Origin: Methanothermococcus sp. Ax23
GTDB taxonomy: Archaea; AGJL01; Methanococci; Methanococcales; Methanococcaceae
NCBI RefSeq assembly: GCF_049075655.1
Contig: NZ_CP157522.1
Span: forward strand, 1,056,001-1,120,000
Direction of reading: 5' to 3'
Length of the DNA stretch: 64,000 nt
Shown: positions 8,104-53,999 of the stretch, piece by piece
Position numbering within the stretch: position 1 is the first letter of the stretch
How the letters are laid out: every line of letters starts with the position of its first letter
Program-made: the position numbers and the translations under genes
Notes under the pieces: model-generated
Told to the model about the DNA's origin: nothing
Databases searched by the model: none
The model's input: only the letters and a program-made list of their open reading frames with translations

Positions 8104-8973
8104 ATGTTTATACCAGGTCATATTACCGGTTTTTTTAAGATATATAAGGATAAAAATATATTAAAAACAGGCTCAACCGGAGCAGGTATTACGCTAAATA
8201 AAGGAGTATATACTGATGTAATTGACGGAAAATCAGATGAATTCCTTCGGAATTCATTACTCGAAATCAGAGATTTCGATGGAGAAATATATTTTAATGG
8301 CGATAAGATAGAATTATGCTCAACAATTGAAGTGGTTAAAAACTATCTGAATTACAACGAATCGGATGAATTTAATTACAATATCATCCATAAATCAGAT
8401 TTTCCATTGGGCTGTGGATTGGGCACATCAGGTTCCTGTGCATTGGGTGCATCATATGAGCTCAGCAAAATTTACAACATAAACAAAGTTTTGGAATTTG
8501 CACATACTGCTGAGGTAAAATGCGGAACTGGACTTGGAGACGTGGTGGCACAATATACAAGAGGTTTTGTAATAAGGAAAAAACCCGGGCTCCCCATAGA
8601 TGTGAAAAAAATAAATATAGATGATATTAATAACTATTATGTAGTTGTTGAAATACTTGGAAAAAAAGAAACTGGCACGATTATCAACAATCCTGAATGG
8701 ATAGATAAAATAAATAAAATGTCTGATGAGCTCCTACAAAAACTATTAAAAAGTCCTACATTGGAAAACTTCATGAGTTTGTCCTATAAATTTGCAAAAG
8801 ATACAGGTCTTGCAAGTGATGAAATAATCGAACTATGCGATGATTTGAGTTTTACCATTGGGAGCTCACAGGCGATGCTTGGAAATACCGTATTTTGTAT
8901 ATGTGAAGATAAAGATTTAAATGATGTATTGTCTATATTAAATAAACCTATTGTATGTAAAATTTATCAATGA
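8104..8973 (+). CDS. Pantoate kinase (GHMP family) with an in-frame ~16-aa hairpin-derived insert
   Basis: [40 protein letters not shown]. Confidence 0.88.
8232..8280 (+). repeat. Double-hairpin micro-element inside pantoate kinase
   Basis: ATCAG-ATGAATTCC-TTC-GGAATTCAT-TAC-TCGAAATC-AGA-GATTTCGA-T: perfect 9-bp and 8-bp stems. Confidence 0.85.
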
Positions 8974-11033
8974 GGGAAATCATGAGTGAAAAATACTTAT
9001 TAACAACAGCTTTGGCATATACAAATGGACCACTTCATTTAGGACATGCGAGAAGCACATATATTCCTGCTGACATTATGAAAAAATACCTGAAATTAAA
9101 AGGTAAGGATGTAATCCATGTTGGTGGAACAGACAACCACGGAGTTCCTATCACACTTACAGCAGAAAAAGAGGGCGTAAAACCTGAGGATATTGTAAAT
9201 AAATATCACAATGAGATAAAGAGAGATTTAGACAATTTAAATGTAGAGTTTGACAGCTACGGAAAAACTCACAGCGATATCCATATAGAAACTGCTCAGG
9301 AGTTTTACAAAAAACTTAAAGAAAATGGATACATTTATGAAAAAGACATAGAGCAGTTTTACTGCCCGAAATGTGATAGATTTTTGGCAGATAGGTATGT
9401 TGAAGGAACATGTCCGTTCTGTGGCGGTGAGGCAAGAGGAGACCACTGCGAAGTTTGTGGAAGACATCTTGAACCAACCGAGCTCATAAATCCATACTGT
9501 ATAAACTGCAACACTACGCCTGAGCTCAGAAAAACAACACATAGGTTCTTTAAATTAAGTGCATTATCCGACGATTTAAGAAATTATGTTGAGAGCTCAG
9601 ACATGCCTGAGCATGTTAAGAATATGGCATACAGCTGGATAAAGGAGCTCCATGACTGGGATATTTCAAGGGATATAAAATGGGGTGTTCCAATACCTGA
9701 CAGCGAAAACCAAGTAATGTATGTATGGTTGGAAGCACCAATTGGTTATATTTCATTTACAAAGCAGTTGGGAGATGTTTGGAAGGATTATTGGTTAAAG
9801 AAAGATAAAAACGAAAATGATAGCGATGTAAAAATATGGCATTTTATTGGAAAGGACATTACAGTTCATCACTCAGTATTTTGGCCAGGCATGTTAATTG
9901 CTAATGGTGAATATAACCTTCCTTCGTCAGTGATAAGCGGCGGTTATTTAACACTTGAAGGAAGAAAGATGAGCACAAGTAAAAAATGGGTTGTTTGGGT
10001 AGATGATTTTGTTAAATACTTTGATTCCGATTATTTGAGATATTTCTTAATGGTAAATGCACCGTTAAATAGGGACTGTGATTTTTCATTTGATGAATTC
10101 CAAAAGAGAATAAACACAGAGTTAATTGCTATCATTGGAAACTTCACACATAGAGCTCTTGTATTTTCACACAGGAAATTTAAGGCTATTCCTGTTGTTG
10201 ATGAAGATAGCTTAAAAGAAGAAGATAAAGAACTGATAAACAAATGTAAAGAAACTGTTGAAAAAGTAGATAAACACATAATGGAATTTAACTTTAAGGA
10301 TGCTATAATGGATATTATTCACCTTGCAAAAGAGGGGAATAATTACTTCCAGAAGATGGAGCCTTGGACTGTTGAGGATGAAAACAGGTTGAAAGAAATA
10401 TTATACACCTGTGCAGTGGTTGTAAAATATATAGTTTATTTGCTTTATCCATTTATGCCAAATAAAACCATGAAACTTCTTGATTTAATGAATGAAGAAC
10501 TTGATTTGGAAATTAGGGGAAATACTTTGAAAAAGCCGAAGGTTGTATTTACAAAAATTGAAGATGACCAAATCAAGATGGTTAAAGGAAAACTATTAAA
10601 ATCAGAAGAAGCTAAGGAAAAGAAGAAAAATAAAAACAAAAAAGATAAAAAAGAAAAAAACAATAAAGACGAAAATAAAAACAACAAAGAAAATGAAAAA
10701 GGTGATTCTATGGATTTAATAAGCATTGATGACTTTGCTAAAATTGAGTTGAGAGTTGCACAGATTTTAGAAGCTGAGGAGGTTCCTAAATCCAAAAAAT
10801 TGTTGAAATTAATTGTAGATATTGGGGATGAAAAGAGACAGGTCGTTGCAGGTATAAAGGGACACTATGAACCATCGGAGCTCGTAGGTAAAAAAATTGT
10901 ATTATTATGCAACTTAAAACCTGCTAAATTATGCGGTGTAGAATCACAAGGTATGGTTTTAGCCGCAGGGGATGAGGTTGTAGCTCTTTTAACACCAGAT
11001 AAGGATGTTCCAGTAGGAAGCAAAATCTGCTAA
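8970..11033 (+). CDS. metG: Methionine--tRNA ligase (start possibly 8982)
   Basis: HLGH and KMSTS motifs, Zn knuckles, C-terminal tRNA-binding OB domain. Confidence 0.98.
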
Positions 11034-11166
11034 TAAACTTTTCTTTTTATATCTTTATTCTAAATTAGATGTATTTTCATTTTATATATTTATTTTTTAT
11101 TTTTTTATATTTTAAACTTTATATATCATATAAAACAAATAAGTATATATTATAAAACAGGAGGGG

Positions 11167-12687
11167 ATGTTTATGCTATTTTTAAAAGTCAAATTTTTAG
11201 ATTTAGACCTGGAAACAAATGCAGTTATTGTAAATGAAGAGGATTTAAAGGGGACTGCATATTATCCTCATGATAGGGTTTTAATAGAAAGTTCGGGAGG
11301 TTCTTTCGTGGGAACTCTATATTCAACAAAAACAATGGTAAATCCAGGGGAAGTTGGTGTTAGTAAGGCAGTTATACCAATACCTTTAAACGAAGGCGAG
11401 GAGGTTAGGATAAGGCATGCTCAAAAACCAGCTTCTTTAAACTATATTAAGAAAAAGATGGACGGCCAGATATTAAAACCTCATGAAATACATACCATTG
11501 TAGATGAGATAGTATCAAGAAAACTATCAAACATAGAATTATCTGCATTTGTGGTTTCAACCTATGTAAATGGGATGGAAACCAATGAAATTGTTGAAAT
11601 GACAAAGAGAATGGCAGAAACCGGAGAAACGCTCGAATGGGATAAAAGTCCAGTTGTAGATGTCCATAGTATAGGAGGAGTTCCAGGAAATAAATACGCA
11701 CTTTTAACAATTCCAATAGTGGCATCAGCTGGAATTACCATTCCAAAAACTTCATCAAGAGCTATTACCTCAGCAGCTGGGACAGCAGACGTTGTTGAAG
11801 TGCTTGCAAATGTAAATTTAGATGCAGAAGAGATAAAAAGAGTAGTTAAGACCACAAATGGATGTCTGGTTTGGGGTGGTGCGGTAAATCTGGCACCTGC
11901 GGATGATATTATAATAAATGTGGAAAGACCACTAGCAATAGACCCTAAACCTCAGTTATTAGCAAGTGTTATGGCTAAAAAGATTGCAACAGGTATTAAC
12001 TATACTGTAATTGATATCCCCATAGGATATGGTGTAAAGATAAAGAATGAAAAAGAAGGAAACCAGCTTGCAAGAAAATTTATAGAGCTCGGCGACTTAC
12101 TGGGCATTCGTGTTGAGTGTGTTCTGACATATGGGGGACAGCCAATAGGTAGGGCGATTGGTCCAGCACTTGAAGCAAGAGAGGCGTTGATGGCGTTAAA
12201 TGACCCAAAATCTGCACCAAAAAGTTTGATTGAGAAATCCCTTTCCCTTGCAGGAGTTTTGTTAGAACTTGGAGGAGCCGCGCAACCTGGAAAAGGTAAT
12301 GAAGTGGCATGGGAAATACTCACATCTGGAAAAGCACTTGAAAAATTTAATGAAATAATAACTGAACAGGGAGGGGAAGAGACAAAACCTGATGAGATTG
12401 AAATAGGAGAGTATAGTGCAGAAATAACTTCTTCAAAATATGGTTATGTAACAGGCGTATCAAATAAACTAATTACAAATATAGCAAAGGAGGCAGGAGC
12501 TCCGAAGGATAAAAAGGCGGGAGTTCTCCTACATGCAAAAACAGGAAATAAGGTAGAAAAAGGAGATGCATTATATACAATTTATTCGAGCTCAGAGGAG
12601 AGATTGAATGCCGCAGTTAATCTTGCAAGAAGAACATACCCTGTGAGAGTTGAAGGTATGCTTCTTAAAAGAATTAGCAGATTCTAA
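11167..12687 (+). CDS. AMP phosphorylase (thymidine phosphorylase family)
   Basis: DVHSIGGVPGNK and KTSSRAITSAAGTAD motifs. Confidence 0.93.
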   Translation: MFMLFLKVKFLDLDLETNAVIVNEEDLKGTAYYPHDRVLIESSGGSFVGTLYSTKTMVNPGEVGVSKAVIPIPLNEGEEVRIRHAQKPASLNYIKKKMDGQILKPHEIHTIVDEIVSRKLSNIELSAFVVSTYVNGMETNEIVEMTKRMAETGETLEWDKSPVVDVHSIGGVPGNKYALLTIPIVASAGITIPKTSSRAITSAAGTADVVEVLANVNLDAEEIKRVVKTTNGCLVWGGAVNLAPADDIIINVERPLAIDPKPQLLASVMAKKIATGINYTVIDIPIGYGVKIKNEKEGNQLARKFIELGDLLGIRVECVLTYGGQPIGRAIGPALEAREALMALNDPKSAPKSLIEKSLSLAGVLLELGGAAQPGKGNEVAWEILTSGKALEKFNEIITEQGGEETKPDEIEIGEYSAEITSSKYGYVTGVSNKLITNIAKEAGAPKDKKAGVLLHAKTGNKVEKGDALYTIYSSSEERLNAAVNLARRTYPVRVEGMLLKRISRF

Positions 12688-13085
12688 ATCAATTCGAATT
12701 TTATCTGCTTTCCTTCCCCTATTAGTTCTTTAAAATCCGTAGCAATGGGGCATATTTTATAATAATCCAACGAATAGTTTTTTCCAGAAGTTGTTAAAAG
12801 ATGTGGATTTATAAACAAAATTTTTCCATTCATCTTCAATGCAATATATGGATGAGCTCCGAAGGTTTCTGAAAAACCTATCAGCTTATCCACATCCTCC
12901 TTTGAGATGTAAAATTTCTCTTTTGATGTAGTTTTGCACTCAAATGCGTAAATTTTTCCTTTTTTTCCTACAATCAAATCAATACCATGACTTCCAGCAC
13001 TTCTAACCACTGCAAACCCTTTATTTTCAAACATTTTTTTGAGCTCTCTTTCAAAGTTGGAACCTTTTTTATATTTATATCCCAT
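12684..13085 (-). CDS. hjc: Holliday junction resolvase Hjc
   Basis: KGSNFERE, VVRSAGS, DLI and ECK nuclease motifs. Confidence 0.93.
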   Translation of the reverse strand: MGYKYKKGSNFERELKKMFENKGFAVVRSAGSHGIDLIVGKKGKIYAFECKTTSKEKFYISKEDVDKLIGFSETFGAHPYIALKMNGKILFINPHLLTTSGKNYSLDYYKICPIATDFKELIGEGKQIKFELI

Positions 13086-13215
13086 CAAAACAGACACCAT
13101 TTAAATAGATACCATTTAAATAAAGTTGAAATAAAATAAAAAAGGAAAATTATCGTCAATCCACATAAGATGTCATGGATAAATCATGAGTGTTCGTAGA
13201 TTGACTATACTTAAA

Positions 13216-13662
13216 TTACTCAATACTTTCAACAATCTCTTTGAATTTATTAATGTCAAGTCTTTTATATTTTTCCAATATGGAATTATATTTGCTGTCA
13301 ATTTCTTCAATATTTAATCCATCTTCTTTTTCAACTTCTTCTAAACCCTTTGAAATTAACTCCAAAGCCTTCTGCTCTGCTTCAAGCTGGTGAAATCCTT
13401 CCCTTGGACCTCCTTTTCTAAATGCCCTACATCTTCTCTTATCCCATATTGGAAATCCCCTATCTTTACAGAATATTTTATTTTTTTCAAGGTTTCTAAC
13501 AATATTCGCTATTTCATCAACAACTTCATCTTCCCCTTCGATATATGCCCCAAAACATGTTTCTTTAACTTTTATATTGTAATCCAATGAATTTAGAAAC
13601 CTAAACAATTTTGAAGGAGATGTTTTTGCATCCTCTGATAAAACTATCACTTTTGTTTTCAT
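13216..13662 (-). CDS. Methanogenesis marker protein 6-like
   Basis: VKETCFG, KDRGFPIWDKRRCRA, GGPREGFHQLEAE. Confidence 0.8.
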   Translation of the reverse strand: MKTKVIVLSEDAKTSPSKLFRFLNSLDYNIKVKETCFGAYIEGEDEVVDEIANIVRNLEKNKIFCKDRGFPIWDKRRCRAFRKGGPREGFHQLEAEQKALELISKGLEEVEKEDGLNIEEIDSKYNSILEKYKRLDINKFKEIVESIE

Positions 13663-13809
13663 GCTACCACCTATTATTTTTATATATTATATTTTTCATT
13701 TATTTTATACCTTTTCGAAGTTCCTATGTCCTCTTTTATTCTCAAGTTCTTTAGATGTTATTTTTTCAATATCATTATAAAGCATTTGGTGAGCTCATAC
13801 TCCTAAATC

Positions 13810-14880: not shown

Positions 14881-14910
14881 GACATACACCTTTTTATGGG
14901 CAATAAATAT

Positions 14911-15262
14911 TTAGCAAGCGATTTCCATTTCACCTTCATTTAATCCATTGTAATTTAAACCTTTTATGGTAGATTCTCTAACTATCTCTTTATTTCTTTT
15001 TAATACTTCCAATTTCATATTTAATTTAATTACATCCTTTGTTATTTTAATTACAAGCTTCAAATTTAATTAAATTTTTTAATAAATCGTATTTATCAAC
15101 TTTGAATATCTTTGAAGCGTCCAATATCTCTATCCCTACAATATCTTTGCTGTCAAAATCCAATAAAACATTATCTAAATCAATAGTTATTTTTGATTTT
15201 GCACCTTTTTTATATATAAATAAGTCATCATTTTCAAAATCATAATCAACACTAACAGTCAT
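14911..15262 (-). pseudogene. DUF2283-like protein, frameshifted near 15058
   Basis: DYDFENDDLF...IVGIEILDASK; after one extra base the frame continues VIKITKDVIK...EIAC* to 14911. Confidence 0.7.
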
Positions 15263-15873
15263 TATTTTTCCCTCCGTTTCCTATTTTGTGGATATATTGT
15301 GATTAAATTAATAGACAATGGTTCTACTGATTTTATCTAATGTCGGCGGGAAGACCCTTCCGTAAGGGATTGAATAAAAATCCTGAAGGGATTTTTATAG
15401 CCCTCCACTTCGCTACGGGGGATGAGAGCCGACAAAAAATATAAATATTATGACGTAATAAAATAAACATATAAATGGGCGAAAACCAAGCTCATTCTAC
15501 ACTATTTTCATGCACCTGCGGAAGGCGGGGGTGAGCCTGTGGAGAAGTGAGCCCCTACCTAGGTAGTTAATAACTACTGGTGATGGCAAGCTCGTTCAGT
15601 GAAGCAGGAAGCCCCTTCCGTAAGGAAGGGGCACTTCACACTAATAACTACTACAATATCATGCTCCTCGCTGTTCTCATAATATACTTTAAATTTTCCA
15701 TCCTTTTGTTTTAGTATTCCCACGGGTTTATTTTCAGTTATGATTTTAAGTATTTCTTCTTCATCAGGTAAATCCTCTTCCCTAAGTTCCAATCTTGTTT
15801 CATAGTGTTTAGTTTTATTAAAATTCTTCTTTTTAGAAGTAAATAGATAAGATAATACCTCATCAATATCCAT
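15262..15873 (-). pseudogene. Small nuclease/toxin-like gene (DUF4258-like) interrupted by a MITE
   Basis: Removing 15337-15639 restores ...HDIVVVISIKSVEPLSINLITIYPQNRKRREK*, whose TAA overlaps the ATG of the DUF2283-like gene. Confidence 0.75.
15337..15639 (+). mobile_element. Non-autonomous IS200/IS605-family (tnpB-derived) MITE, 303 bp
   Basis: Inserted 3' of TTTAT with no target duplication; left end GTCGGC...GCCGAC; right end GAAGCAGGAAGCCCCTTCCGTAAGGAAGGGGCACTTCAC; remnant of a TnpB C-terminus (PAEGGGEPVE). Confidence 0.88.
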
Positions 15874-15931
15874 CCTTTCACCATAAACCGGAGCTCCTAT
15901 ACCAACCTAAAAATAAAATATTAAATTATAT

Positions 15932-17145: not shown

Positions 17146-18074
17146 TAGTGTGGGTCATATTACACTCTAACCTCTAATACCTTCATATAAGGATAACCTC
17201 TGGTAATGAGATTATATAGTGCTAAAACCTGTGCAGAAACTACTGCACAGAGACAGAATACTTTTTTACGAATATAACCTTTGATATTAATCCAAAACTT
17301 ATTCATAAATCGGTTCTTTAATATTGAATTGGTGTGCTCTATTTTAACTCTTATCTTAGAAACTTCCGAAGGAAGTTTCTTTTTATTTTTCCTACCCAAT
17401 CTCCGTGGATTATGTGCTGTTATTAGTTCATTTTTGTATAATTCTATCGCTTTTTTTTAAATCTTTTGAATCATAGCCTGCATCTGCACAGGACTTTTTG
17501 GTAGGTACTAATAATTTATCAGCTACTTTACAATCGTGAGTATTTGCTGTGGTAAATTCTGCTCTTAATGGTATTCCTAACTTATCTACTGCTAAATGTA
17601 ATTTAAAGCCTTTAAACATTCCTACACTGTTATATCCTATCTTTCCCTCAATATCTGTTTCGTCTTTTATTGGAGTGCTATCGTATATTGACCATTCAGG
17701 ATTATTTAGTTCAATATATTTATCACCTAATAAAGTAATTATTGCATGCAATTCTTCATCTAGGGATTTTTTCCATCTATCGATGGTTCTTCTACCAGGG
17801 CAGGATTTAAATCCTAATGCAGTTAAAATCTGTGGATTATTTTGTAAGTGTAATACTAACGCTCTATTTGAATGTATGCCTTTTAAAAAGGCATACACTA
17901 ATAGTTTAAGCCTCAACTCTAAATTATATCCTTTTCTCCCTACCTTTCTTCGTTTAGGGATTCGGTCAATTAAATCTGATGTAATTATCTCATTTACCAC
18001 TTCCTCAGCCTTCATATTATCGTCTTTTTTATAATATTATATTTAGTATAGGTTATATATTTTGACCCATACTA
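17146..18074 (-). mobile_element. IS5/IS1182-like DDE insertion sequence (~929 bp)
   Basis: TIRs TAGTGTGGGTCATAT / TAGTATGGGTCAAAT; 14-bp flanking direct repeat TTTATCTTTTATTT; transposase inside. Confidence 0.85.
17160..18015 (-). CDS. DDE transposase split by a +1 frameshift at A8 (17451-17458)
   Basis: YDSTP, GFKLHL and ADAGYDS in ORF1; RVKIEH in ORF2. Confidence 0.8.
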
Positions 18075-18444: not shown

Positions 18445-18480
18445 TCTGACCTACTCCCACGACTAAAGTCGTGGGGTTCT

Positions 18481-19742
18481 TTAGCAGGGTCTAACCCTAC
18501 ATGGGTTGCCAAGCCCACTACCCCTATCTCCGTTTAGGAGATTCAGGGCTACCTTATGCGATACTTTTTTTAAAATATTCAAAGCCCCGTTAATGTCTGC
18601 ATTCAAAACCATGCCACACTCACTACACACATACAAACCCCTATACTTCCTATTACTCTTTTTAACTACACCACAATTACTGCAAGTTTGAGAAGTATAA
18701 GCTTCATTAACCTGTTCTACTGTTAATCCCTTTTCCTCTGCCTTATATGTTATCATACTTACTAACCTACCAAAAGGTATTCTATGCAATTGCTGATTAA
18801 CCCTATCTCCAATGTCAATACTTGAAATGCCTTTGTTTAACTCGCCGATTACAATCCTTGAAACTTTGTTATCCACTGCAAAATCGATAATCATTTTACT
18901 TATTTTATGTAGATAATCCTTAGTATAATTCTTTTCCCTTACTGTTAAGCGGGATAATCGTTTATTATATTTTAACTCTTGCTTTGTTAGGGTAGATTGG
19001 ATTTTTCCTTTACTTTTAGCAAACCATCGGAATTTAGAAATTAACCTTCTTCCATCGTAGATTACTGCACTGCCCGTATTGGTTACTACTGTTGCTAAAT
19101 TCTTAATTCCTAAATCAATACTTAGTATATTACCTTCTTTGATAGGTTCTTGAATTACTGGTTTCTTATGGATTAAGTGAAGTATGTAGTAGGTTATCCC
19201 ATAGATGGTCTGCGGAACTATCTCAACTTCTTTAACCTGCATGGTATCAAGCGGTAGAGTTTTCGATAAATCTACCCATAAGTACTTGGACTTGATACCA
19301 TGCTTCTCTTTGAGATAGTTTTTAGTTTGTTTAGATAATGATAACCTTAACTTATTGCCTATGATTTTGAAACCTTGCTTCTTCCATTTTACGGGAAAGT
19401 GTCCATCTTTTGGTTGGTATCGTGGTCTTTTAGTGTGCTGTTTGAAGTAGTTTTGCCATGCAATCGCTTGCGTAGCAAGCGAGCAACGAAAACCGAAGGT
19501 TTTCGTCTAATTTGAAGTTTTTGACATACTGCCTGTGCTGACTGTGAGTGCAGGTTTTTAAACCAGAAGTTGTTCTTCATTTGAACATCTATTTTATTTG
19601 GTTTAATATTTCGCTGTATTACTTCGTAGTTGGATGTATTCCAGAGTTTTGATGCTGAATAGGTTAAATGGTTTATGATTGTTAATTGTTCATTATTTAA
19701 ACTTCTGGTTAGGTTTATTGTCAGCACTCTGGTTACTTGCAT
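18481..19742 (-). pseudogene. tnpB: RNA-guided endonuclease TnpB, frameshifted by a 47-nt hairpin insertion
   Basis: RuvC IDLG, GEL and NADINGALNI motifs; Zn finger CSNCG/CSECG; deleting 19462-19508 gives a continuous frame KLQIAWQNYFKQ. Confidence 0.92.
19462..19508 (-). repeat. 47-nt double-hairpin micro-element inside tnpB
   Basis: AG-ACGAAAACC-TTC-GGTTTTCGT-TGC-TCGCTTGC-TAC-GCAAGCGA-TT. Confidence 0.9.
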
Positions 19743-20192
19743 GGAATTCACCAAATTTATATATGCCATTATTCTAATTACACTCATATTATGTAGTGAA
19801 GTATATAAAAAAATGATGTCCGCCTATCATCCAATCTCATAAGAGATTTTACAAAACCTTGTTTTGTATAACGATTAAAATCGTTGGCTTTCTCGGCGGT
19901 TTATCGTAAAAAATTAATTTCTTTGAAATTTTATGTCACCATACGCTTCGCACACTATAATTTAGAATATCTCTAATATTCATTTTTCCGAATAAGACTC
20001 AGCTTATATATTCCATCCTATGAATTGAGAATATTTTTTTATTAATGTTAATAAATTTGACGAAAATAATAACGTATATATAATACTATTTATTTATTCC
20101 GTAATATATGATATTATTTAATATTACACTGTTGCAACATGTGCATGTCTTTTCATTATATACTTGATGTTATTTATAAAACTGGTGGTTGT

Positions 20193-27549: not shown

Positions 27550-27867
27550 ACAAACACCAAAAAAGTATTAGTATATTAATATAGAGAGAGTGGTAGATAT
27601 GATAATTATGAATTAAGGTGTTATTTTGTTATTATTGATTGATATCTATTTTTCCACTCATTTAAAACTTCATCCCTATGCTCTCCCCAATATACAAAGT
27701 CCATGTCTATGAAATCTAATTCACTAGGATTTGGAACTCCTTCAAGGGTTTTTATATCACTTCTTACGGGAACTCTTGGACTTGCATTCATTAAAACTTC
27801 TTGCCCTCTTTTTGACAATACCCAATCCACAAATTTCTTTGCATTGTTTGGATGTTTGCAGTCTTTA

Positions 27868-29022
27868 CTGACAGTGTGAATTAACAATACCATCTTTAAA
27901 ATCAAAAAATAGAAATAGGTAGTAGTTAAATATCTCATTAAAAAACGGTGAATTCAGCATGCTAAAGACATTAAGTAATATGCTCACTAATTCTATAAAT
28001 AGTTTAGGATTTAACTGTTCGGAAGAATTATCTAAGTTTGCATTGGTTAGAACGTTAACGCCGATAAAAACTATTAAAGCATTTTCAGAAAGTATTTCAA
28101 AAATCCACAGAACAACTATCGTTAAAAACTTGCAAAAACTCTTCGAAGAAGAGTTTTACTTATACGCTCAATTATTAAACCTTCCCGACATTTTGAATGA
28201 CAATAGATTTAAATACGCTGCAATAATCGATTCAACATTATTAAGAAGATGGAGTGAAAACATTTATGGTTGTAGTATTAGATACAATTACATCGAAAAT
28301 CATAGCAAACTATATCAAGAGCAAATAAACTGCTGTATCTATCACAAAAAAAAGGGCTTTATACTATTCACACTACGATAAAACCACTCGACAAAAAATC
28401 CACAAACATATTTATTGAAATCATTGAATTTTTATCTCAAACTAACATCAGGACGGTTATAGGGGACAGTTTTATCACAACAAAGAAAATTCTAAAGGTA
28501 TGTAAGGAATTGGGAATCGAATACATTGGCAAACTTAGGAAAAACATTATAATCGAGTTTTTCAGTAAGAAGGTTAAAGTGGAAGAATTGTTCGAAAAGG
28601 ATTTTCAAAAAAGAAAGTTCAAATTAAGGACGATTAATGGAATAGAGTTCAAATTATCCGATAGGATTGTGAATATTCCAAATGTTGGCAAGGTTAAAAT
28701 CGTTGCTGTGCAAATGGAAAATCAGAAAAAACCTAAGTATTTAGTCTCTACAAACTATAAAAAGAAGGCGGAGAACATTATAATCGAGTATATGAAGAGA
28801 CCAAAGATAGAAGAAAAACATAAAAGGGATAAATCGATTTTAGAAGTTGAAGGGAATTACATAACTTCTGAAAAGAGTAATATTGGATTCATTAGATTTA
28901 TGGCGGTAGTATCAAACTGCATCGAATACTTAAGCTACAACTATGGATTATCGTTTTATGAAATCGTTAAAAAGTGTGGTAAAGAACTAATAAAGAAAGG
29001 AATATCATAATCACACTGTCAG
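27868..29022 (+). mobile_element. DDE insertion sequence (IS701/IS4/ISH3-like), 1155 bp
   Basis: TIR CTGACAGTGTGA at both ends; 7-bp TSD GTCTTTA at 27861-27867 and 29023-29029. Confidence 0.93.
27959..29010 (+). CDS. Transposase, probable -1 programmed frameshift at A AAA AAG (28346-28354)
   Basis: IIDST in ORF1; IGDS and RPKIEE in the -1 frame, which is open from the slippery site. Confidence 0.8.
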
Positions 29023-30899: not shown

Positions 30900-31050
30900 A
30901 AATCGATGATACTATCCGCTAAAAATCTCTTTGAGATTTTTAGACTAGTATCATCTAAAAAAAGAGAAATCGGTGATACTATCAGATGAATTTCACAGAA
31001 TGAAATTCATTACTAGTATCATCTAAAAAAAGAGAAATCGGTGATACTAT
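30900..31050 (+). repeat. Mini-array: 39-bp direct repeats separated by distinct 28-29 nt hairpins
   Basis: ACTAGTATCATCTAAAAAAAGAGAAATCGGTGATACTAT at 30944-30982 and 31012-31050; partial copy at 30900-30915. Confidence 0.9.
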
Positions 31051-32258: not shown

Positions 32259-32400
32259 ATTAGACGAAAACTTCGGTTTTCGTTGCTATATGCTTATTCG
32301 GAGCTCTGATTGAACTCCTTTGGATTTTGTAGCATCGAACCGAGGGTTCGAAATTAAAATTGTGAAGCAATTTTATATTCTACGCTCCTTCGGAGCTCCG
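32259..32400. repeat. Intergenic cluster of short hairpin modules
   Basis: ATTAGACGAAAACTTCGGTTTTCGTTGC (1-nt indel versus the tnpB insert), TCGAACC-GAG-GGTTCGA, TAAAATTG...CAATTTTA, GCTCC-TTC-GGAGC. Confidence 0.8.
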
Positions 32401-41834: not shown

Positions 41835-41851
41835 TAATTATTGGTGATACG

Positions 41852-46487: not shown

Positions 46488-46497
46488 AAGGGATAGT

Positions 46498-46824
46498 ATG
46501 GCATGTATCGACAATTATAATTATGAAATATTGCACAAAGGTTCATTTAGGGAATGTGCGGAATACATCAGAAACAATTATAAAAACATAAGGGATTTAG
46601 ACGCTGGGGAGGAAGTTGTGGAAGGGGTCATGTTAATTGGTAAGCCGCCAATTCCAATAGCTTATGAAGAAGATTATATTGTATTTCCATATACAAAACC
46701 ATGTTATGGAAGTTTTGTTTTAAAAATCCCCTTAGAGGAATATATAAAAAGCGAAAAGAAGAAAAATGAAGATAAAAAAGATAAAGAAGGTAAAAATATA
46801 TTATCTAAATTAAAATTTTGGTAA
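46498..46824 (+). CDS. DUF1894-like conserved archaeal protein
   Basis: GKPPIPI, FPYTKPCYG. Confidence 0.72.
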   Translation: MACIDNYNYEILHKGSFRECAEYIRNNYKNIRDLDAGEEVVEGVMLIGKPPIPIAYEEDYIVFPYTKPCYGSFVLKIPLEEYIKSEKKKNEDKKDKEGKNILSKLKFW

Positions 46825-46833
46825 GGTGGTATT

Positions 46834-47280
46834 TTGAAGATAATGATTATATTGGGGTGTCCAGAACCTCCTGTTTTAATTCCTTCTTTTATATATCTTT
46901 TAAATATGCTAAAAAATAATGGTCATGAAGTGGTTGTTTCGGCAAATCCTGCTGCATTAAAATTGATTGAAACAGCTGACCCTGAAAAATATTATTTAAA
47001 AGGTGTTGGATTTCAAAATATAGACGAAGGATTGAAGCATAAATTTGATGTTGATATGATTATTGGTTTTGCACATAATGATGCTGCTGTTAATTATATT
47101 ATTACCTATAAAACAGTTTATGGTTCAAAAACTACTGCATTGGTATTTGGTAGGTGTATAAACGAAGAATTTGTAAAAAGTTTGGAAGAAGAAGGTATTA
47201 AAACATTTACCGCCAGGGCATTCCATAACCCAATGCCTGTTGTTGTGCAGTTAAAAAAGATTGTAAATGAAAATTTATAA
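46834..47280 (+). CDS. DUF1890-like conserved archaeal protein
   Basis: LGCPEPP, NPAALKL, HNDAA, AFHNP. Confidence 0.75.
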   Translation: MKIMIILGCPEPPVLIPSFIYLLNMLKNNGHEVVVSANPAALKLIETADPEKYYLKGVGFQNIDEGLKHKFDVDMIIGFAHNDAAVNYIITYKTVYGSKTTALVFGRCINEEFVKSLEEEGIKTFTARAFHNPMPVVVQLKKIVNENL

Positions 47281-47322
47281 CCATATAATCTATTTTATTT
47301 ATTTTTATAAAACTTGTATATT

Positions 47323-48093
47323 TTATATTTTGGTTAATTCATCCTGCTTTATCAGCGCTTCCCTTACACTTCTTTTAACACATTTTGCAATCATTTCTCC
47401 CAGTTTTGTATGCCCTCCCGTATAGTCTGCCTTTTTCCCGAATCCTTTAACAACAATTATATTATCCGTTCCTGTTCCAGTAGCCTGCAATTCTGGGTAT
47501 TTTGTGCTTTTTATGTTCAATTCCTGAAATGCGTTTGTTTTTGCTTCGGTAATTGTAATAATTGCCCTTGCCATTGCCCCATCTGTTAAATCTGCATTTG
47601 TTATAAGTATTATATTAACAGTTCCGACTTTTTCTTTTTCAACCAACTTTCCATTAACGATTTTATAGGTTTTAAAGTCTTTTTCGATATAATCCGCTTC
47701 TTCATCCCCCAACCGTATGGCATTAAATTTTGCTCCCGCAGTTGTAAATGCTATTGTGTAGAATTCATCAAATTCTTCTTTTGCAACGGCAAGATTGTCC
47801 ATATTTGCCCCAGTGGATAACAATGCAATATCCTTTTCATTTATGCCTATCTTTTCCAAAACCTGCTTTTCATAATCTTTATAACTATGGACCTTATCCC
47901 AGAATAGAACAGGTATTGAGTTATTTCCAACATATTTAACAGTTTTAAATCCCTCTCTTGTAGATAATACTTTTCTATTTTTATTAAATTCAATCATCAA
48001 TGTTTTTGTAGGTTCTGATTCATCTCCAATTTCTACTGTATGGGGTATTTTTAGAGCTCTCCAGTTATCCAATTTATAAATGTTTTCAATCAC
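47323..48093 (-). CDS. cbiZ: Adenosylcobinamide amidohydrolase
   Basis: TAG...NA, GTVNII, TEAK, ATGTGTD, GGHTKLG. Confidence 0.88.
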   Translation of the reverse strand: MIENIYKLDNWRALKIPHTVEIGDESEPTKTLMIEFNKNRKVLSTREGFKTVKYVGNNSIPVLFWDKVHSYKDYEKQVLEKIGINEKDIALLSTGANMDNLAVAKEEFDEFYTIAFTTAGAKFNAIRLGDEEADYIEKDFKTYKIVNGKLVEKEKVGTVNIILITNADLTDGAMARAIITITEAKTNAFQELNIKSTKYPELQATGTGTDNIIVVKGFGKKADYTGGHTKLGEMIAKCVKRSVREALIKQDELTKI

Positions 48094-48275
48094 TTTACCA
48101 CCAGAAATAAATATTATATTTTTAATATAGTTTAATAATTTAGTATATTATTACGATATTATATTTAATTGATATTTAAATGTTTTAAAGTAATCTTAAA
48201 TTAAGCATATAAATAGATATGTCAATATTAAATATACCAATTATCCAAAAAATAAAAAATTAAACTATTGATAAT

Positions 48276-49361
48276 ATGATGAATAAAATACATGAAAAGC
48301 AATTAAACGAAAATAAAATTAAAATATTGGATGAGGTAAAAAAACATTATAAAGAATACTTTATTTACGCCATTAAAAGAAAATGGTTGGAAATTCCTGA
48401 TGAGATACACCATAAAGAAATAGGTTTTGGATATTTAAAAAAGGTAGATAATAGGAATATATCCTTCGATTCTGAAAAAGAATATTTAAAATGGGTTTTG
48501 GAAAACGCTCCATTTCATTTATATAAATCTCTCTCATATATGGAACATCCTGATTTCATTGGCGGTGCTTCTCAAAAAAAGATATTAAAAAGAGAGATGG
48601 CATTTGATATTGATGTCCATAGGGTAAAAAAATGCACTCATGAGGACGATGGCTGGATTTGTAAATACTGTTTGGAGGAGGCAAAAAATCAAGCATTTAT
48701 ATTAATTGATGAATTTTTAATATCTGATTTTGGTCTATCAAAAAATGATTTAAAAATAGTTTTCAGTGGAAATAGAGGATATCATATTTACATAAAACCG
48801 CAGGATGAGGAGATAAAAAATACCATAGAACATTGGGATAGGTATCAAAGGCGATATTTTATAGAGTATATATTGGGAAAGAATTTAAATTTAAATTATG
48901 TTGGAAGCGGATGGAGTAGGAGAATATTAAATAATATAAAAAATAAGCAGATAAAAACCCAGTTGAGTAAAACCAAAAATTGGAAGCAAATAATTGATAA
49001 AAAAAATGAAAATGATAAAAATAAAATACTATCAATAATAGAAAATACCAAAAACAGATTGGAACTTGATGAAAAGGTTATGGAAGATGACATTAGATTG
49101 TTAAGAGTAATTGGTTCTTTACATGGATATACAGGATTTATTGTTAAAGAAATAAAATACAATTCATTGGAATATTTTAACCCTTTAAACCATGCAGTAT
49201 TTTCTAAATTCAATAAAGAATATTATAATGTAAAAATAAATCAAAAGATTGATTCATTGAGAATAAAGGATAAAACCTACACTACTCGGAGTAAGGAAAT
49301 CCCTGCAAGCATGTTATTGTTTTTATTTGGTCATGGCGTGGATTTTGAAATATTGGATTAA
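48276..49361 (+). CDS. priS: DNA primase catalytic (small) subunit
   Basis: FDID, FSGNRGYH, D..V..D.IRLLR, SLHG. Confidence 0.95.
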   Translation: MMNKIHEKQLNENKIKILDEVKKHYKEYFIYAIKRKWLEIPDEIHHKEIGFGYLKKVDNRNISFDSEKEYLKWVLENAPFHLYKSLSYMEHPDFIGGASQKKILKREMAFDIDVHRVKKCTHEDDGWICKYCLEEAKNQAFILIDEFLISDFGLSKNDLKIVFSGNRGYHIYIKPQDEEIKNTIEHWDRYQRRYFIEYILGKNLNLNYVGSGWSRRILNNIKNKQIKTQLSKTKNWKQIIDKKNENDKNKILSIIENTKNRLELDEKVMEDDIRLLRVIGSLHGYTGFIVKEIKYNSLEYFNPLNHAVFSKFNKEYYNVKINQKIDSLRIKDKTYTTRSKEIPASMLLFLFGHGVDFEILD

Positions 49362-49387
49362 TCATAGAAATTTAAGTTAATTTTAAA

Positions 49388-50354
49388 CGCTCATGTTCTT
49401 ATATCGGTTGAAAGTAATATCGATAACCATGTCTGTTTATTATTTAGTTTCAATGCCAACAAGTCTAAATACCCCTGTAACCATCGGAAACTAACTCCTC
49501 GGTATTTACTCATATAACTTCTTAAAAAACTGTGTCTATTCTCACAGCTATTGACATGAACATCTCCACGGGCAAATTCTCGCTTGGAATGATTTACAAA
49601 ATCATGCCCTTTCACAGTATTATCTAAATATATAGGTAGGTTTTCATAGATAGAATATTCATCAGTATATATCTTTATTTTTCCATTAATACAATCCTTA
49701 AATCTGTTCTTGAATTTTTTAGGAAACTTTTTAAGATTTTCAAAAACTGTGAATTTAACTTCCTTAGATTTTCGAACTACTATTGTAATTATTGGAGGTT
49801 TTCCTGATTTTGCTGTTCCTCTCCCTCTTTTGTGAGAACTTCTTTTTTTAGGATTCTTTTTTTAAACCTTTATCTCCTGCATGGATGTAAATTTCATCCA
49901 TCTCTATAATATCTTCCAATGTAGGGGATAATTTACCAGATATTTTTTGAACCTCATGGACGAAGTTTAAAACTGCTTTGTAGTCCCTATCCAATTCCTC
50001 AGAAATCTCTTTTGTAGATTTATGAGGCATATTTGCCAAAATATACATCATTTCATTAACTGGAAATTTATGATGTTCAAATATGGTATTAGTTAGGTCA
50101 TTGAATAATTTTCCACAGCTTTTACATTTATATCTTTGAGATTTCTTTGAGTTAGAGCCGTATTTTAAAATCTCTTTACTATTACAGTATGGACAAGTTA
50201 TTCCATCTTTCCATTTAGCTTTCCTAATTACCTCATAACATTTCTCTATATCTGGTAGAAATAAATTCCTGATAATGTCTTTATTCTCTATCATGGTAAA
50301 TATTATATATTTGAGAATATATAAATATTACCAACTGGAATATACAGATGAGCG
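49388..50354 (-). mobile_element. IS1595-family insertion sequence (~967 bp)
   Basis: Imperfect TIRs starting CGCTCAT; 8-bp TSD ATTTTAAA at 49380-49387 and 50355-50362. Confidence 0.92.
49391..50294 (-). CDS. IS1595 transposase split by a +1 frameshift at A7 (49857-49863)
   Basis: CPYC/CKSC Zn ribbon and EMDE in ORF1; the +1 frame gives KRGRGT, YTDEY, VNHS, HVNSCE. Confidence 0.85.
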
Positions 50355-50357
50355 ATT

Positions 50358-51209
50358 TTAAATTCTGAATAAATCCAGCCCTATATCAACGGCACGGGCG
50401 GAATGTATTAAGCATCCCATGGATATTACATCAACATCGTATTTTGCATAGTCTAATACATTATCTTCGTTTATTCCACCACTAACTTCAATAAATGGTC
50501 TATATTTATTTTTATTTTCAAATTCATTTATTATATTAAGGGCTTCTTCAATATTATCAGGCTTAAAATTGTCTAACAATATAATATCTGGTCTGTATTT
50601 TAATACTTCTTTTAACTGCTCTAAATTATCTACTTCAATCTCCACCTTTTTTGAGAAACTGAGCTTTTTTATCTCATTAAAGCATTTCTCGATTCCAACG
50701 GCTTCAATGTGATTATCTTTAATCATCACCATATCATCCAATCTTAATCTATGGGTATCGCCTCCCCCAACATAAACTGCATATTTTTCAACCATTGATA
50801 GCATTGGGAGGGTTTTTCTTGTGCAGGCGATTTTTACATTTTTATTTATTTCCCTTACCATTTTTACTATGTGATATGTTTTCGTAGCTATTCCAGACAG
50901 ATGCATTAGAAAATTTAAAATTGTTCTTTCAAGTGTTAAAATTGTTTTTGTATTTCCATAAATCTCCATTATATGAGCATTTTTCTGGACGACACTCCCC
51001 TCATTTACAAAGATTTTGTATTTTAGATTATAATCATCCAAGAAATCCGCGACAAAATTTATTCCACAAACTACTGCATTCTCCTTAACTCTTATTACTG
51101 CCTTGGATTCGTGGTTTTTTGGAATAATCAATTCTGTGGTTAAATCTCCAAAACCAACATCATAAATAAGAGATTCTTTTAAGAGTTTTTTTACACATTC
51201 ATTTATCAT
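50358..51209 (-). CDS. nadC: Nicotinate-nucleotide diphosphorylase (quinolinate phosphoribosyltransferase)
   Basis: TRKT, HRLRLDDMVMIKDNH, EIEV, LLDN, EVSGGI. Confidence 0.97.
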   Translation of the reverse strand: MINECVKKLLKESLIYDVGFGDLTTELIIPKNHESKAVIRVKENAVVCGINFVADFLDDYNLKYKIFVNEGSVVQKNAHIMEIYGNTKTILTLERTILNFLMHLSGIATKTYHIVKMVREINKNVKIACTRKTLPMLSMVEKYAVYVGGGDTHRLRLDDMVMIKDNHIEAVGIEKCFNEIKKLSFSKKVEIEVDNLEQLKEVLKYRPDIILLDNFKPDNIEEALNIINEFENKNKYRPFIEVSGGINEDNVLDYAKYDVDVISMGCLIHSARAVDIGLDLFRI

Positions 51210-51435
51210 AAAATCACCAATCAACATATCTATACCATTTTATATTATTTATTAAATTTTAACAGTGATGAATTATTTATTAAGGAATTCTGGAATTTTT
51301 TTAATTTATGAATATAAATACATTTAATATATCATTATGCCCTCTATGATTAGCCATATAATTAGCCATATATAGTATGTATTTAAAATATTATCAAATT
51401 ATTCTTTTATGTATATTATTATAAGGTGGTATCTT

Positions 51436-51828
51436 ATGCTTAAAACACTTCCCCCCACACTAAGAGAGAAAAAAAGATATATTTCATTTAAAATTCTTTA
51501 TCATAAGGAATTATCTGGAGGCGAGGTAGTAAATATAATCAGAACTGCAATTATTGATTACTATGGAGTTTGGGGCTGTTCAAAGAGTAATCCGTGGTTA
51601 ATTGATTATAATCATCCAAAGGGTCTTTTAAGAGTATGCCGTGATGAAGTGGATTTTGTGAAGTCCGCACTTATTTTATTTAATGAATATAAAAAACATC
51701 CAATAAATATAATAATATTAGGAGTTTCGGGAACTATCAAAAAGTCAAGAAAAAAGTTTTTAAAAGTCCCTCATGAAGAATATTATAAAGTTATTCAGAG
51801 AAGAAAAAAGGAGATGCAATCCAAATAA
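51436..51828 (+). CDS. rnp2: Ribonuclease P protein component 2 (Pop5)
   Basis: LPPTLREKKRYI, GVSGTIKK. Confidence 0.93.
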   Translation: MLKTLPPTLREKKRYISFKILYHKELSGGEVVNIIRTAIIDYYGVWGCSKSNPWLIDYNHPKGLLRVCRDEVDFVKSALILFNEYKKHPINIIILGVSGTIKKSRKKFLKVPHEEYYKVIQRRKKEMQSK

Positions 51829-51901
51829 TTCAATAAACCATAAAAATAATTAAAAAAATAACTTAAAAACATTAACCTAAATAAAAAATAAAGGTGCTAT
51901 C

Positions 51902-52816
51902 ATGTTAAAAACCAGCATATTTGGAATCGATTTTAAAAATCCTGTATTTTTAGCCGCTGGAGTGATGGGTGAAACAGGAAGTGCATTAAAAAGAATGGCA
52001 AAAAATGGTGCAGGAGCTCTATGCACAAAGTCAGTTGGAATGGAAAAAAGGGAAGGACATAACAATCCAACAATGGTTGAAGTTGAGGGAGGTTTCTTAA
52101 ATGCCATGGGACTTCCAAATCCAGGAGTAAGGGAATATGTCGAGGAACTTGAAAGAGTGAAGGATGATTTAAAACGAATGGATGCAAAATTAATAGGTTC
52201 TATATATGGAAAAGACCCCAATGAATTTTCGGAGGTTGCAGAAATTATTGAGCCCCATGTGCAATTAATAGAGTTAAACATATCCTGCCCACATGCCGGT
52301 GGTTGCTACGGAGCTCAGATAGGACAAAATCCAGATTTATCATATAAGGTTGTTTCTGCTGTAAAAGATGCTGTAAATATTCCCGTTGTGGCAAAACTTA
52401 CCCCAAATGTGGTAGATATAAAGGAGATAGCAAAAACTGTTGTTGAAGCAGGAGCTGATGGGATTACGGCAATAAATACCTTAGGTCCTGGAATGGTAAT
52501 AGATATAGAAACCCAAAAACCAATACTGGGAAATAAAGTCGGTGGAATGTCGGGAAAAGCTATAAAGCCAATAGCCGTAAAAAATGTATATGATATTTAC
52601 TCAGTAGTTGATGTCCCAATAATTGGAGTTGGAGGAATAACTACTGGATATGATGCTATTGAATTTATGTTGGCAGGAGCTCATGCTGTTCAGGTTGGAA
52701 CTGGTGTTTATTACAGAGGATACGACATATTTAATAAAATCTGCGATGAGATGGAGGCATTTTTAAAGGAGAAGAATCTCAAACTCAAAGATATAATAGG
52801 GGGAGCTCATGAGTGA
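51902..52816 (+). CDS. pyrD: Dihydroorotate dehydrogenase (family 1B catalytic subunit)
   Basis: [27 protein letters not shown]. Confidence 0.96.
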
Positions 52817-53999
52817 GAAAAATTTTAATGAATTTGTGGAGTTTCCGAGCGTAAGCGAGGAAATGAGCAAATTCGAAGAATTTGTGCAATTTTTAAACTC
52901 AAATAATCCATCTGAGGTAATCGATAAGTTAAATTTAATAAATGAAATGGAGAAAAGTAATAAATGGGATAATAAAAGTAATAAAAGTAATAATAAAGAT
53001 AAAACTAATACTAACACTGAAAGTAATAAAAAATACATCACATACTCAAAAAATGTATTTATTCCATTGTGCAATTGGTGCAGGAATGTTTGTGGATACT
53101 GCACATTTAGAAATGAAAATTATAAATTGATGAATAAAAATGAGGTTAAAGAAATCCTTTTAAAAGGAGACAAATACGGCTGTAAAGAGGCATTATTTAC
53201 ATTTGGAGAAAATGTTGATGAAAACGAAAAAATAAGGGAAGATTTAAAAAAAATGGGATACAGTAGCATTTTAGAATATCTTTATGATTTGGAGGACTGG
53301 TGCCTTAATAATACTGAATTATTGCCCCATACAAACTGCGGGATACTGAATTATGAAGAACTAAAACTATTAAAAGAAGTTAATGCTTCCATGGGTCTTA
53401 TGCTTGAAAATTCAAGTGAAAGGCTTTTTAAAACCATCGCACATAAGGACAGCCCTGGAAAAGAGCCGAAAAAACGATTAAAAATGATTGAAAATGCTGG
53501 AAAATTAAAAATCCCATTTACAACAGGTATTTTAATTGGGATAGGTGAAACAAACGAGGAAATTGTTAAATCATTATATGACATTAAAAAACTTAATGAA
53601 GAATATGGGCATATTCAGGAGGTTATAATTCAGAATTTCAGGTCGAAAAAAGGCATACCTATGGAGGACTTTAAAGAGCCTTCTCCTTTAAAAATGTTGA
53701 AGGTTTTAATCGTGGCAAAATTAATATTAAACGATATATCCATACAAGTTCCTCCAAATCTAAATTCTGAAACTGGTCAGTTATTCTTATTTGCGGGTGT
53801 TGATGACTGGGGCGGAGTATCTCCATTAACAAAAGATTATGTAAATCCGGAAGCTCCATGGCCGGAGATTGAGGAGTTAAGGCGATATACTGAGGAATTT
53901 GGATATGTATTAAAAGAGAGATTGCCAGTTTATGAAAAATATATTAATAAAACATGGTTAAGTGATAAGGTGCTTGAAAAAATTTTATATAAAAAGTAA
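52809..53999 (+). CDS. cofG: FO synthase subunit CofG (radical SAM)
   Basis: [38 protein letters not shown]. Confidence 0.95.
52839..52886. repeat. 48-nt in-frame double-hairpin insert at the cofG N-terminus
   Basis: TTTCC-GAGCGTAAGCGA-GGAAA plus CAAATTC-GAA-GAATTTG; GAATTTGTG repeated 48 nt apart. Confidence 0.75.

Follow-up and report, generated by a model that had tools for sequence, protein, structure and literature searches.

Small palindromic repeats are the described sequences that come closest to the element reported here. For the archaeon Methanocaldococcus jannaschii, Suyama, Lathe and Bork (FEBS Lett 2005) reportedly described the palindromic repeats MJRE1-3, some of them in frame in genes, which are said to comprise 141 elements of about 100 nucleotides (nt) each, 14.3 kb in total. 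The Rickettsia palindromic elements (RPEs) have lengths of 100 to 150 bp, and Elhai and coworkers (Genome Res 2008) are said to have described cyanobacterial small dispersed repeats that consist of a single hairpin of roughly 20 to 30 nt. Repetitive extragenic palindromic sequences (REPs) are, in the passages that a published survey devotes to them, palindromes of 20 to 40 nt with a conserved unpaired tetranucleotide, GTAG, at one end, and some of them are located inside genes (PMC3733652). According to the same passages, several REP families can share a genome and are thought to move as single-stranded hairpins, and families with a CGTC tag occur without a dedicated transposase (PMC3733652). 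Here, we describe a family of short double-hairpin elements from a window of 64 kb (the whole stretch of DNA that was analyzed; positions refer to it unless a genome is named) of the archaeon Methanothermococcus sp. Ax23, where one copy lies in the pantoate kinase gene and another in a tnpB gene. The element is very probably a mobile insertion element, and we favor, with moderate confidence, the view that it represents a family of miniature nonautonomous DNA transposable elements, a view that includes single-strand movement by an HUH-type enzyme (HUH, histidine-hydrophobic residue-histidine).

Anatomy and abundance of the double-hairpin element

The first element (positions 8233-8279, plus strand) lies in frame in the gene for pantoate kinase (open reading frame, ORF, 8104-8973), to which 48 nt, corresponding to 16 residues, have been added. 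The second element, 47 nt long (19464-19510, minus strand), occupies a place in tnpB that we term site A; it shifts the reading frame, and the gene is split into ORFs 19389-19787 and 18481-19242. Both are built alike: the tag, TCAG or TTAG, is followed by a first hairpin with 9 perfect base pairs and a loop of 3 nt, and after the linker, TAC or TGC, comes a second hairpin whose stem is perfect over 8 bp and whose loop again has 3 nt; the pantoate kinase copy represents the TCAG/TAC subtype and the tnpB copy the TTAG/TGC subtype. They can be aligned without gaps, and all seven base pairs at which they differ are compensated. A preliminary description of this DNA had already pointed out two matching 47-nt double hairpins with seven compensated pairs, and they are indeed present there, with coordinates refined to those given above. 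When folded as single-stranded DNA (ssDNA), the two elements gave z values of −5.2 and −5.9 (−4.4 to −5.9 across either strand), and none of 200 shuffled sequences folded as well.

The genome that contains the window (G000; G003, G004, and so on are labels of related genomes) has a size of 1.66 Mb with a G+C content of 31.9%, plus a second contig of 7.7 kb, and its main contig is far richer in hairpins than first-order Markov simulations. Perfect hairpins with a stem of at least 7 bp and a loop of 3 to 4 nt number 1,024 (568 to 641 in three simulations), those with a stem of at least 9 bp number 258 (49 to 64 in three simulations), and there are 295 stems of at least 8 bp in which each arm has three or more G or C (31 in one simulation); the most frequent combination of loop and closing pair is C-TTC-G or its complement (95 cases). 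The preliminary description had proposed that copies be counted against shuffled controls and that a covariance model be built, and both approaches revealed many copies. Pairs of perfect hairpins no more than 5 nt apart were found 161 times in the genome, versus 1, 8, and 4 times in the simulations, and the covariance model (termed R1), built from nine of 15 distinct copies, gave 65 matches in this genome at E ≤ 0.001, including the pantoate kinase copy with 60.5 bits and the tnpB copy with 74 bits. The 15 seed copies show a clear consensus with six invariant columns, T1, A3, and G4 of the tag being the same in all of them. [quoted passage not shown]

Pairing was evaluated in 41 distinct copies from this genome and its relatives. 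Standard pairs occupy 97.7% of the cells, and both sides change in 15 of the 17 pairs. Double-change cells number 104, compared with 28 in shuffles (0 of 500 shuffles reached 104), and the covariation signal was lost when the partner columns were slid; the compensatory variation claimed in the preliminary description is therefore strong. The 41-copy alignment had been fitted to R1, which favors the structure, and gapless alignments of the seeds give the same pattern. Only 5 of the 658 cells are G-T, a scarcity that is more in line with a DNA palindrome than with a fold of RNA. What varies is each stem's upper half; tag, linker, and stem bases are conserved. The family had initially been characterized as conserved in structure and not in sequence; the structural half of this statement holds, but the sequence, too, is conserved in the three parts just named. 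First and second hairpins of different types are found in different combinations, as had been proposed for modular hairpins, and altogether roughly 150 hairpin modules of at least three kinds are present in this genome.

Tag and linker are coupled at their second bases, which are positions 2 and 39 of the element: TTAG occurs with TGC and TCAG with TAC, a few copies combine TTAG with TAC, and none combines TCAG with TGC. Two orthologous copies (G000 1043319-1043367 and G003, locus L069, 1501-1549) differ exactly at these coupled positions. The coupling could mean that the two sites touch each other or that subfamilies have undergone conversion. At about ten places of the genome (e.g., 313974-314022 and the 1121799-1147 kb region, in genome coordinates), there is a third hairpin-pair family, whose linker, GACTT, has 5 nt and which has flanking motifs of its own.

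Filled and empty sites in genes and insertion sequences

The insert in pantoate kinase is missing in all 10 aligned orthologues (nine further loci, on the minus strand, were left out of this alignment), and the 16 extra residues fall exactly at the element. At the nucleotide level, the site is empty in the closest relative, G003, and in G012. The G012 pantoate kinase has a different, low-complexity insertion of ~32 residues at another position, which is not a hairpin element. A second in-frame copy, in a thiamine-enzyme gene elsewhere in the genome, has an empty counterpart in G003 and in five of five other aligned orthologues. Since both insertions are absent from the closest relative (~90% identity), they are young.

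A further in-frame insertion, of 48 nt (52842-52889, minus strand), is located at the N terminus of a CofG-like radical S-adenosylmethionine gene (ORF to 53999) and belongs to a sister family, in which the hairpin precedes a short and variable stem with a conserved loop of ~12 nt. Another place in the genome has a homologous polymorphic insert of 48 nt, and a loose pattern for the ~12-nt loop matched 46 places in the genome, ~40 of which, as judged by eye, follow a first hairpin. At the CofG site, one copy is present in G000, two tandem copies are present in G003, and the insert is missing from G004 and G009, as compared at the nucleotide level, and from three more distant orthologues, as compared in a protein alignment. 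Because G003 has the insertion at the same place, it predates the split of G000 and G003, and the in-frame tandem pair in G003 indicates that modules of the sister family can grow by tandem duplication. Clean empty sites in orthologues, which the preliminary description had suggested looking for, are thus found for pantoate kinase, the thiamine enzyme, and CofG. Its assertion that the insertions are recent applies to the pantoate kinase copy, absent from the closest relative, and does not extend to the CofG copy, shared with the sister species, or to site A, filled in seven of nine full-length ISs.

In this genome, in-frame copies are found in three housekeeping genes; coding copies are found pointing either way with respect to their gene, and the in-frame copies are read through as protein-coding sequence without a stop. 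Only lengths divisible by three keep a coding region open, and other lengths break the gene, as in tnpB. These properties bear on the idea that the element spreads via RNA, either as a reverse-transcribed structured RNA or as an intron-like insert that is removed from transcripts. The hairpins would form in RNA too, some copies lie in transcribed genes, and splicing would render the 47-nt tnpB insert harmless. Such a route is nevertheless highly improbable in view of the near absence of G-U pairs (5 of 658 cells), of a TTCG-like loop that, by inspection, is out of register with the stem and so does not form a stable RNA tetraloop, of junctions that, by eye, form no bulge-helix-bulge motif, and of coding copies that lie in both gene orientations and are translated without a stop.

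The interrupted tnpB gene belongs to a tnpB-only IS of the IS200/IS605 type (18446-19907, minus strand), an intact paralogue of which matched the Pfam families OrfB_IS605 and Cas12f1-like_TNB. Full-length copies of this IS measure 1.4 to 1.5 kb, and there are ~28 MITE derivatives of 283 to 407 bp. The sequence TTAC, which we take to be the target of IS608-type IS200/IS605 elements, is located at 19908-19911 and precedes the left end in 38 of 38 IS/MITE copies. These 38 copies are present although the genome gives no match to a single-tyrosine (Y1) transposase, and the spread of this IS is itself unexplained.

Comparison of the IS copies revealed four sites that some copies have filled and others precisely empty. 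Site A is filled, and tnpB broken, in seven of the nine full-length ISs, and the two empty copies retain intact ORFs of 404 and 420 amino acids. Site B, empty in the window (19070-19072, minus strand, a coordinate derived from query position ~980), is filled in frame in three other IS copies (net gain of 48 nt). Site C, likewise empty in the window (18479-18480, minus strand), lies 3 nt from the right-end hairpin and 36 nt from the right end of the IS; a 50-nt element, the same or almost the same in sequence, is present there in 22 of 37 IS/MITE copies, and the site is filled in three of the nine full-length copies. In TnpB elements, the region of site C is transcribed into the guide RNA scaffold, to which the insert would add two stem-loops. 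At the opposite end, a 37-nt double hairpin of a different family (19835-19871, minus strand; boundary ambiguous by 2 nt; fold z = −4.9) abuts the left-end hairpin of the IS, and this site is filled in 30 and empty in 7 of 37 IS/MITE copies. The module had previously been placed at 19833-19869 and proves to be a separate double hairpin that is polymorphic among the IS copies. Among the 37 copies, 19 carry both the 37-nt insert and the site C element, 11 carry only the left-end insert, 3 carry only the right-end one, and 4 carry neither. In an unbiased screen for gaps of 15 to 150 nt between repeats, 29 of 34 gap positions corresponded to double-hairpin modules at six distinct sites, and the other five corresponded to three unrelated small indels. 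The preliminary description had held that the modules interrupt IS605-type elements and had proposed a minimal noncoding insertion element; the filled and precisely empty IS/MITE copies bear out the first point and, together with the clean empty sites in orthologues, the second.

On a tree built without the insert columns, site C requires nine changes, at least five of which are forced by well-supported branches, compared with about 12 for shuffled labels. The hairpin 3 nt from site C occurs in three variants, each of which is seen both filled and empty. Either the element has entered or left site C repeatedly or recombination between IS copies is frequent. Three mapped insertions adjoin end hairpins of IS200/IS605 elements, one of them being a 49-nt copy in G015 that lies 6 nt from the left-end hairpin of a Y1-bearing IS, a place that is empty in G020 and G028.

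Hairpin modules elsewhere in the window are more loosely related. A partial element on the plus strand (TTAG, first hairpin, and TGC; 32260-32290; R1 E = 1.6e-5) begins an intergenic composite hairpin array that extends to ~32400 and has piecewise matches elsewhere in the genome. The same layout with other tags (TTGA, hairpin, AGC, and second stem) is seen in an intergenic module at 15370-15421 (plus strand), inside a composite of ~94 nt that a 7-nt inverted repeat bounds (15341-15434); it has about ten partial relatives in the genome. At 30905-31018 (plus strand), two neighboring long hairpins each enclose an inner hairpin, the second of which is flanked by TCAG and TAC, and only short matches to them were found elsewhere in the genome. 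Even at E ≤ 1, R1 gave no match at 15370-15416 or 30916-31011. The list of related modules in the preliminary description therefore stands in part: those at 19833-19869 and 52839-52886 are insertions and that at 32259-32400 begins with a partial R1 match, and those at 15370-15416 and 30916-31011 share the layout without an R1 match. A preference for insertion beside existing hairpins would be in keeping with the composite arrays at 15341-15434, 30905-31018, and 32260-32400. A fragment of a transposase with a DDE (aspartate-aspartate-glutamate) motif (17428-18015; DDE_Tnp_1, DUF772), from a family of eight copies, adjoins the tnpB IS, and a perfect 10-bp hairpin lies just downstream of it (17358-17380).

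Junctions, distribution, and possible means of movement

The element has no terminal inverted repeats, its two ends not being complementary, and no target duplication of fixed length; the junctions are ambiguous by 1 to 5 nt of variable sequence. A classical MITE moved by a DDE transposase was rejected on these grounds. The element is found in a single orientation, with the tag adjoining the hairpin foot. The base preceding the tag is A in 51 of 56 unique sites (background, 0.34; p ~8e-19), and the base before that is A in 33 of 56. Behind the element, 26 of the 56 sites have T and 21 have A, which is not significant. A target similar to the start of the element itself, with TTAG or TAG just past the cut, was seen in 4 of the 56 sites and also in the empty sites at orthologous genes and at the G015-type IS, which is suggestive and not significant. 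The 1- to 5-nt microhomology at the junctions would suit hairpins that arise de novo by template switching or fold-back synthesis, with no donor copy, as would the varying upper stem parts and a sequence just upstream of the CofG insert that resembles part of it. A long consensus is, however, common to the copies and unrelated to their flanks, most of the 22 filled site C copies have the same 50-nt sequence with few single-base variants, and the homologue of the CofG element elsewhere in the genome does not resemble its own flanks, so that we give an origin without donor hardly any credence.

R1 (E ≤ 0.001) detected the element in 20 of 31 related genomes. In the phylum-level set, which consists of 40 genomes, all Methanococcales, it was detected in 21 and is absent from 19, including all seven of genus g3, and relatives carry 0 to 46 copies each. 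Eleven of 12 Methanocaldococcus genomes have 1 to 14 copies, some of them inside long ORFs (G027 and G028). A strict pattern scan of the genomes of 185,579 species returned five stretches, three from named Methanococcales, the records with the element family being from Methanocaldococcus and Methanothermococcus. One of the remaining stretches, a contig filed under Bacteroidales (L074) with a full element, appears to be misbinned, because it is 78 to 81% identical to this genome at 196-199 kb. The two bacterial matches were rejected as signs of a wider spread, one being misbinned Methanococcales DNA and the other a weak match of 30 bits, at chance level. The family is confined to Methanococcales as far as searched; for absence outside the order, the search is the strict pattern scan, since the phylum-level set covers only this order. 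A copy identical to the tnpB element is present in a different context in G030 and G017, which belong to different families, and the 40-nt left flank that both share along with the 47-nt element points to a shared carrier element and horizontal transfer.

This distribution also bears on whether the hairpins are functional motifs that the host retains for their structure and that spread by being of use and not by being selfish, such as protein-binding sites, terminators, or signals for replication or recombination. The stems are conserved by compensated changes across the order, many copies are intergenic, and the C-GAA-G and C-GTA-G triloops, unusually stable in DNA, would suit thermophiles. 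Yet host motifs would not be expected to interrupt and frameshift tnpB, to lie in frame in housekeeping enzymes at nonhomologous places and in both orientations, or to be lacking in 19 of 40 genomes of the order and in every member of one genus, and no Rfam match was obtained at the gathering score across the 64-kb window. We therefore regard a host function as very unlikely.

The element comprises 47 to 50 nt, namely, the TYAG tag, a hairpin of 9 to 10 bp, the TRC linker, and a second hairpin of 7 to 9 bp. Under the favored reading as a miniature transposable element, it enters DNA almost always right after an A, without inverted repeats or target duplication, and several insertions lie beside existing hairpins, e.g., at IS200/IS605 ends. 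It may move as ssDNA folded into hairpins, with cutting and joining in trans by an HUH-type (Y1-like) enzyme that would be specific for structure and that this genome does not encode at present. Of the possible chemistries, we judge an HUH-type mechanism in trans the most likely, and we propose it tentatively. The present absence of Y1 is compatible with past HUH activity or activity in trans (from a gene since lost or carried by a plasmid or virus), because the 38-copy TTAC-targeted IS also lacks Y1. Y1 genes were found in six of the 31 relatives (three intact and three degraded), and all six genomes carry at least 11 element copies.

Several observations weigh against this reading. The preliminary description had named an HUH/Y1 enzyme as a candidate, but the Pfam family Y1_Tnp (PF01797) had no match in this 98.9% complete genome (it matched in 6 of 14 control genomes), and an intact Y1 gene is found in 3 of 31 relatives, compared with 20 of 31 for the element. 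The Y1-free genomes G000, G013, and G017 carry 65, 35, and 46 copies, respectively, and no element copy was found within the loci surrounding the Y1 genes of G020 and G028. A link to IS200/IS605 is suggested by the correlation of element numbers with TnpB numbers across the 31 genomes (Spearman, 0.74), but this value is inflated, since 43 of the 65 copies ride in ISs or MITEs and related genomes do not represent independent cases. Where IS200/IS605 elements have a target motif of 4 to 5 nt, the element has just one A; its cuts would fall at distances of 4 nt and 0 nt from the feet of the hairpins, in contrast to IS608; and its hairpins share only a 4-bp stem base with the end hairpins of the resident IS. 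There is no orientation bias with respect to the replichores (11 plus and 15 minus among unique sites), the GC skew being weak. The tree of full-length ISs is poorly resolved and star-like, and the mosaic of filled and empty sites could stem from recombination between IS copies instead of new events. Plain membership of IS200/IS605 or REP/RAYT (REP-associated tyrosine transposase) systems is made less likely by the target of one base, the geometry, and the missing co-occurrence. Helitron_like_N (PF14214) and Y2_Tnp (PF04986) gave no matches in this genome, but they also gave none in any of the 14 control genomes, and Rep_trans gave none in this genome.

Some of these points suit an old, now immobile family, whose ancient insertions were copied passively by the IS and its MITEs and shuffled by recombination or gene conversion. 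That 43 of 65 copies lie in IS or MITE copies, that the CofG insertion is older than the split of G000 and G003, that one in-frame copy is common to three species of the other family, that the star-like IS tree leaves room for recombination, and that no mobilizer gene was found among Y1_Tnp, Y2_Tnp, Helitron_like_N, and Rep_trans would all be in line with it. We consider it unlikely, given ~22 unique sites outside the IS in this genome, young insertions in pantoate kinase and the thiamine enzyme that are absent from a relative of ~90% identity, the occurrence of both states of site C with each of three variants of the hairpin only 3 nt from it, and a copy 100% identical to the tnpB element in unrelated contexts in genomes of two families.

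Transposition genes that are present in this genome comprise two IS607-type resolvases, two DDE transposase families, and two TnpB families. The two IS607-type units (G000 46736-48638 and 1510598-1512500) consist of a serine recombinase followed by a TnpB of 435 amino acids. The IS607-type serine recombinase was set aside as mobilizer, since no fixed crossover dinucleotide suits all junctions. A 140-amino-acid ORF with five copies (27959-28381) was also considered as a hidden small HUH protein and rejected; it is the front part of a 1,158-bp IS, has a DDE-like motif by eye, and gave only insignificant Pfam matches. This IS (27865-29022), of which that ORF is the first, is present in five copies at ≥99.4% identity, and the ORF holds a perfect 10-bp hairpin with a TTC loop (28135-28157). 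The second contig (C2, 7.7 kb) contains helicase-like ORFs with weak DEAD/ResIII helicase matches, has neither a recognizable Rep nor an element copy, and is probably circular, as its largest ORF runs off both ends.

Relation to described repeats and transposable elements

IS200/IS605 elements and their miniature derivatives resemble the double-hairpin element in lacking terminal inverted repeats and target duplications, in having one orientation and a hairpin near each end, and in their precise presence or absence. They differ in that the element has about one-seventh of the size of the resident MITE of about 320 to 380 bp and a one-base target in place of TTAC. When the end of an autonomous IS was sought as a match by BLAST of the IS against the genome and the relatives' loci, the inserted element was the only match, and the Y1-bearing ISs of G015, G020, and G028 have unrelated end hairpins. 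The element inserts into these IS ends and is not derived from them.

A lead, to be taken as such, is offered by the termini that we associate with Helitron and IS91 elements: the other strand of the element starts with TC and ends with CTRA, with a hairpin just before this end, T follows that end in 51 of 56 sites, and there is no target duplication. The element is two orders of magnitude smaller, however, and the base on its other side is not fixed. The cyanobacterial small dispersed repeats are said also to nest in each other and in mobile elements and to have no known transposase; they differ in phylum and sequence.

The likeness to REPs lies in the unpaired tetranucleotide 5′ of the first hairpin, TYAG here and GTAG there, and those REPs that the survey passages treat are bacterial, whereas the element is archaeal (PMC3733652). 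A REPIN consists of two inverted copies of one hairpin, whereas two unlike hairpins stand in tandem on one strand here. In contrast to REP/RAYT systems, this genome has no RAYT or Y1 gene, and the relatives' Y1 genes are not flanked by the element (G020 and G028), the copy in G015 being an insertion into the left end of an IS. With RPEs, the element shares the character of a selfish palindromic repeat that lies in frame in housekeeping genes and has no known mobilizer; the survey passages class RPEs with the CGTC-tagged families, and they are bacterial and unrelated in sequence (PMC3733652).

The question of what moves small palindromic repeats that lie in frame in genes, such as RPEs, MJREs, and CGTC-tagged REPs, is now about twenty years old, and the present family offers a clean test case: the unit is short and sharply bounded, young insertions are missing in a sister species, three IS sites are polymorphic, and dozens of copies are found in some genomes of the order and none in others. 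Excision assays, phylogenetic profiling, and pull-downs with oligonucleotides that form the hairpins thereby become feasible. For annotation, the element matters in that it adds 16 residues to enzymes, breaks tnpB genes, and brings two stem-loops into the right end of an IS, where the guide RNA of TnpB nucleases is encoded. It is conceivable, but rather doubtful, that a unit of ~50 nt repeatedly enters, and perhaps precisely leaves, sites beside IS200/IS605 end hairpins in genomes without a recognizable HUH transposase. If so, either an enzyme not yet described would move it, or ordinary proteins of host replication or repair would do so by acting on extruded hairpins. It would then rank with the smallest DNA units known to propagate themselves and, with seven of nine tnpB copies here broken by it, would be a natural inactivator of TnpB-type elements. 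Worth following are the mobilizer and the apparent repeated use of sites beside IS200/IS605 hairpins.

The family described here probably overlaps the MJRE repeats of M. jannaschii, since it is present in Methanocaldococcus with some copies in long ORFs and ~150 modules of at least three kinds occur in this genome. As far as the reported description of MJREs, rather than their sequences, allows comparison, both are palindromic and dispersed repeats of Methanococcales, partly in frame and with no known mobilizer; the reported MJRE length of ~100 nt is roughly twice that of the unit here. We found no description of the present repeats in Methanococcales in the open literature, supplements not being covered. 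Because the family occurs, partly in frame, in the genus of the reported MJREs, the suggestion in the preliminary description that the system is undescribed is doubtful. We conclude that this order-wide family of miniature hairpin transposable elements is real and that it belongs to a kind of repeat that is already known, with MJREs probably being of the same kind.

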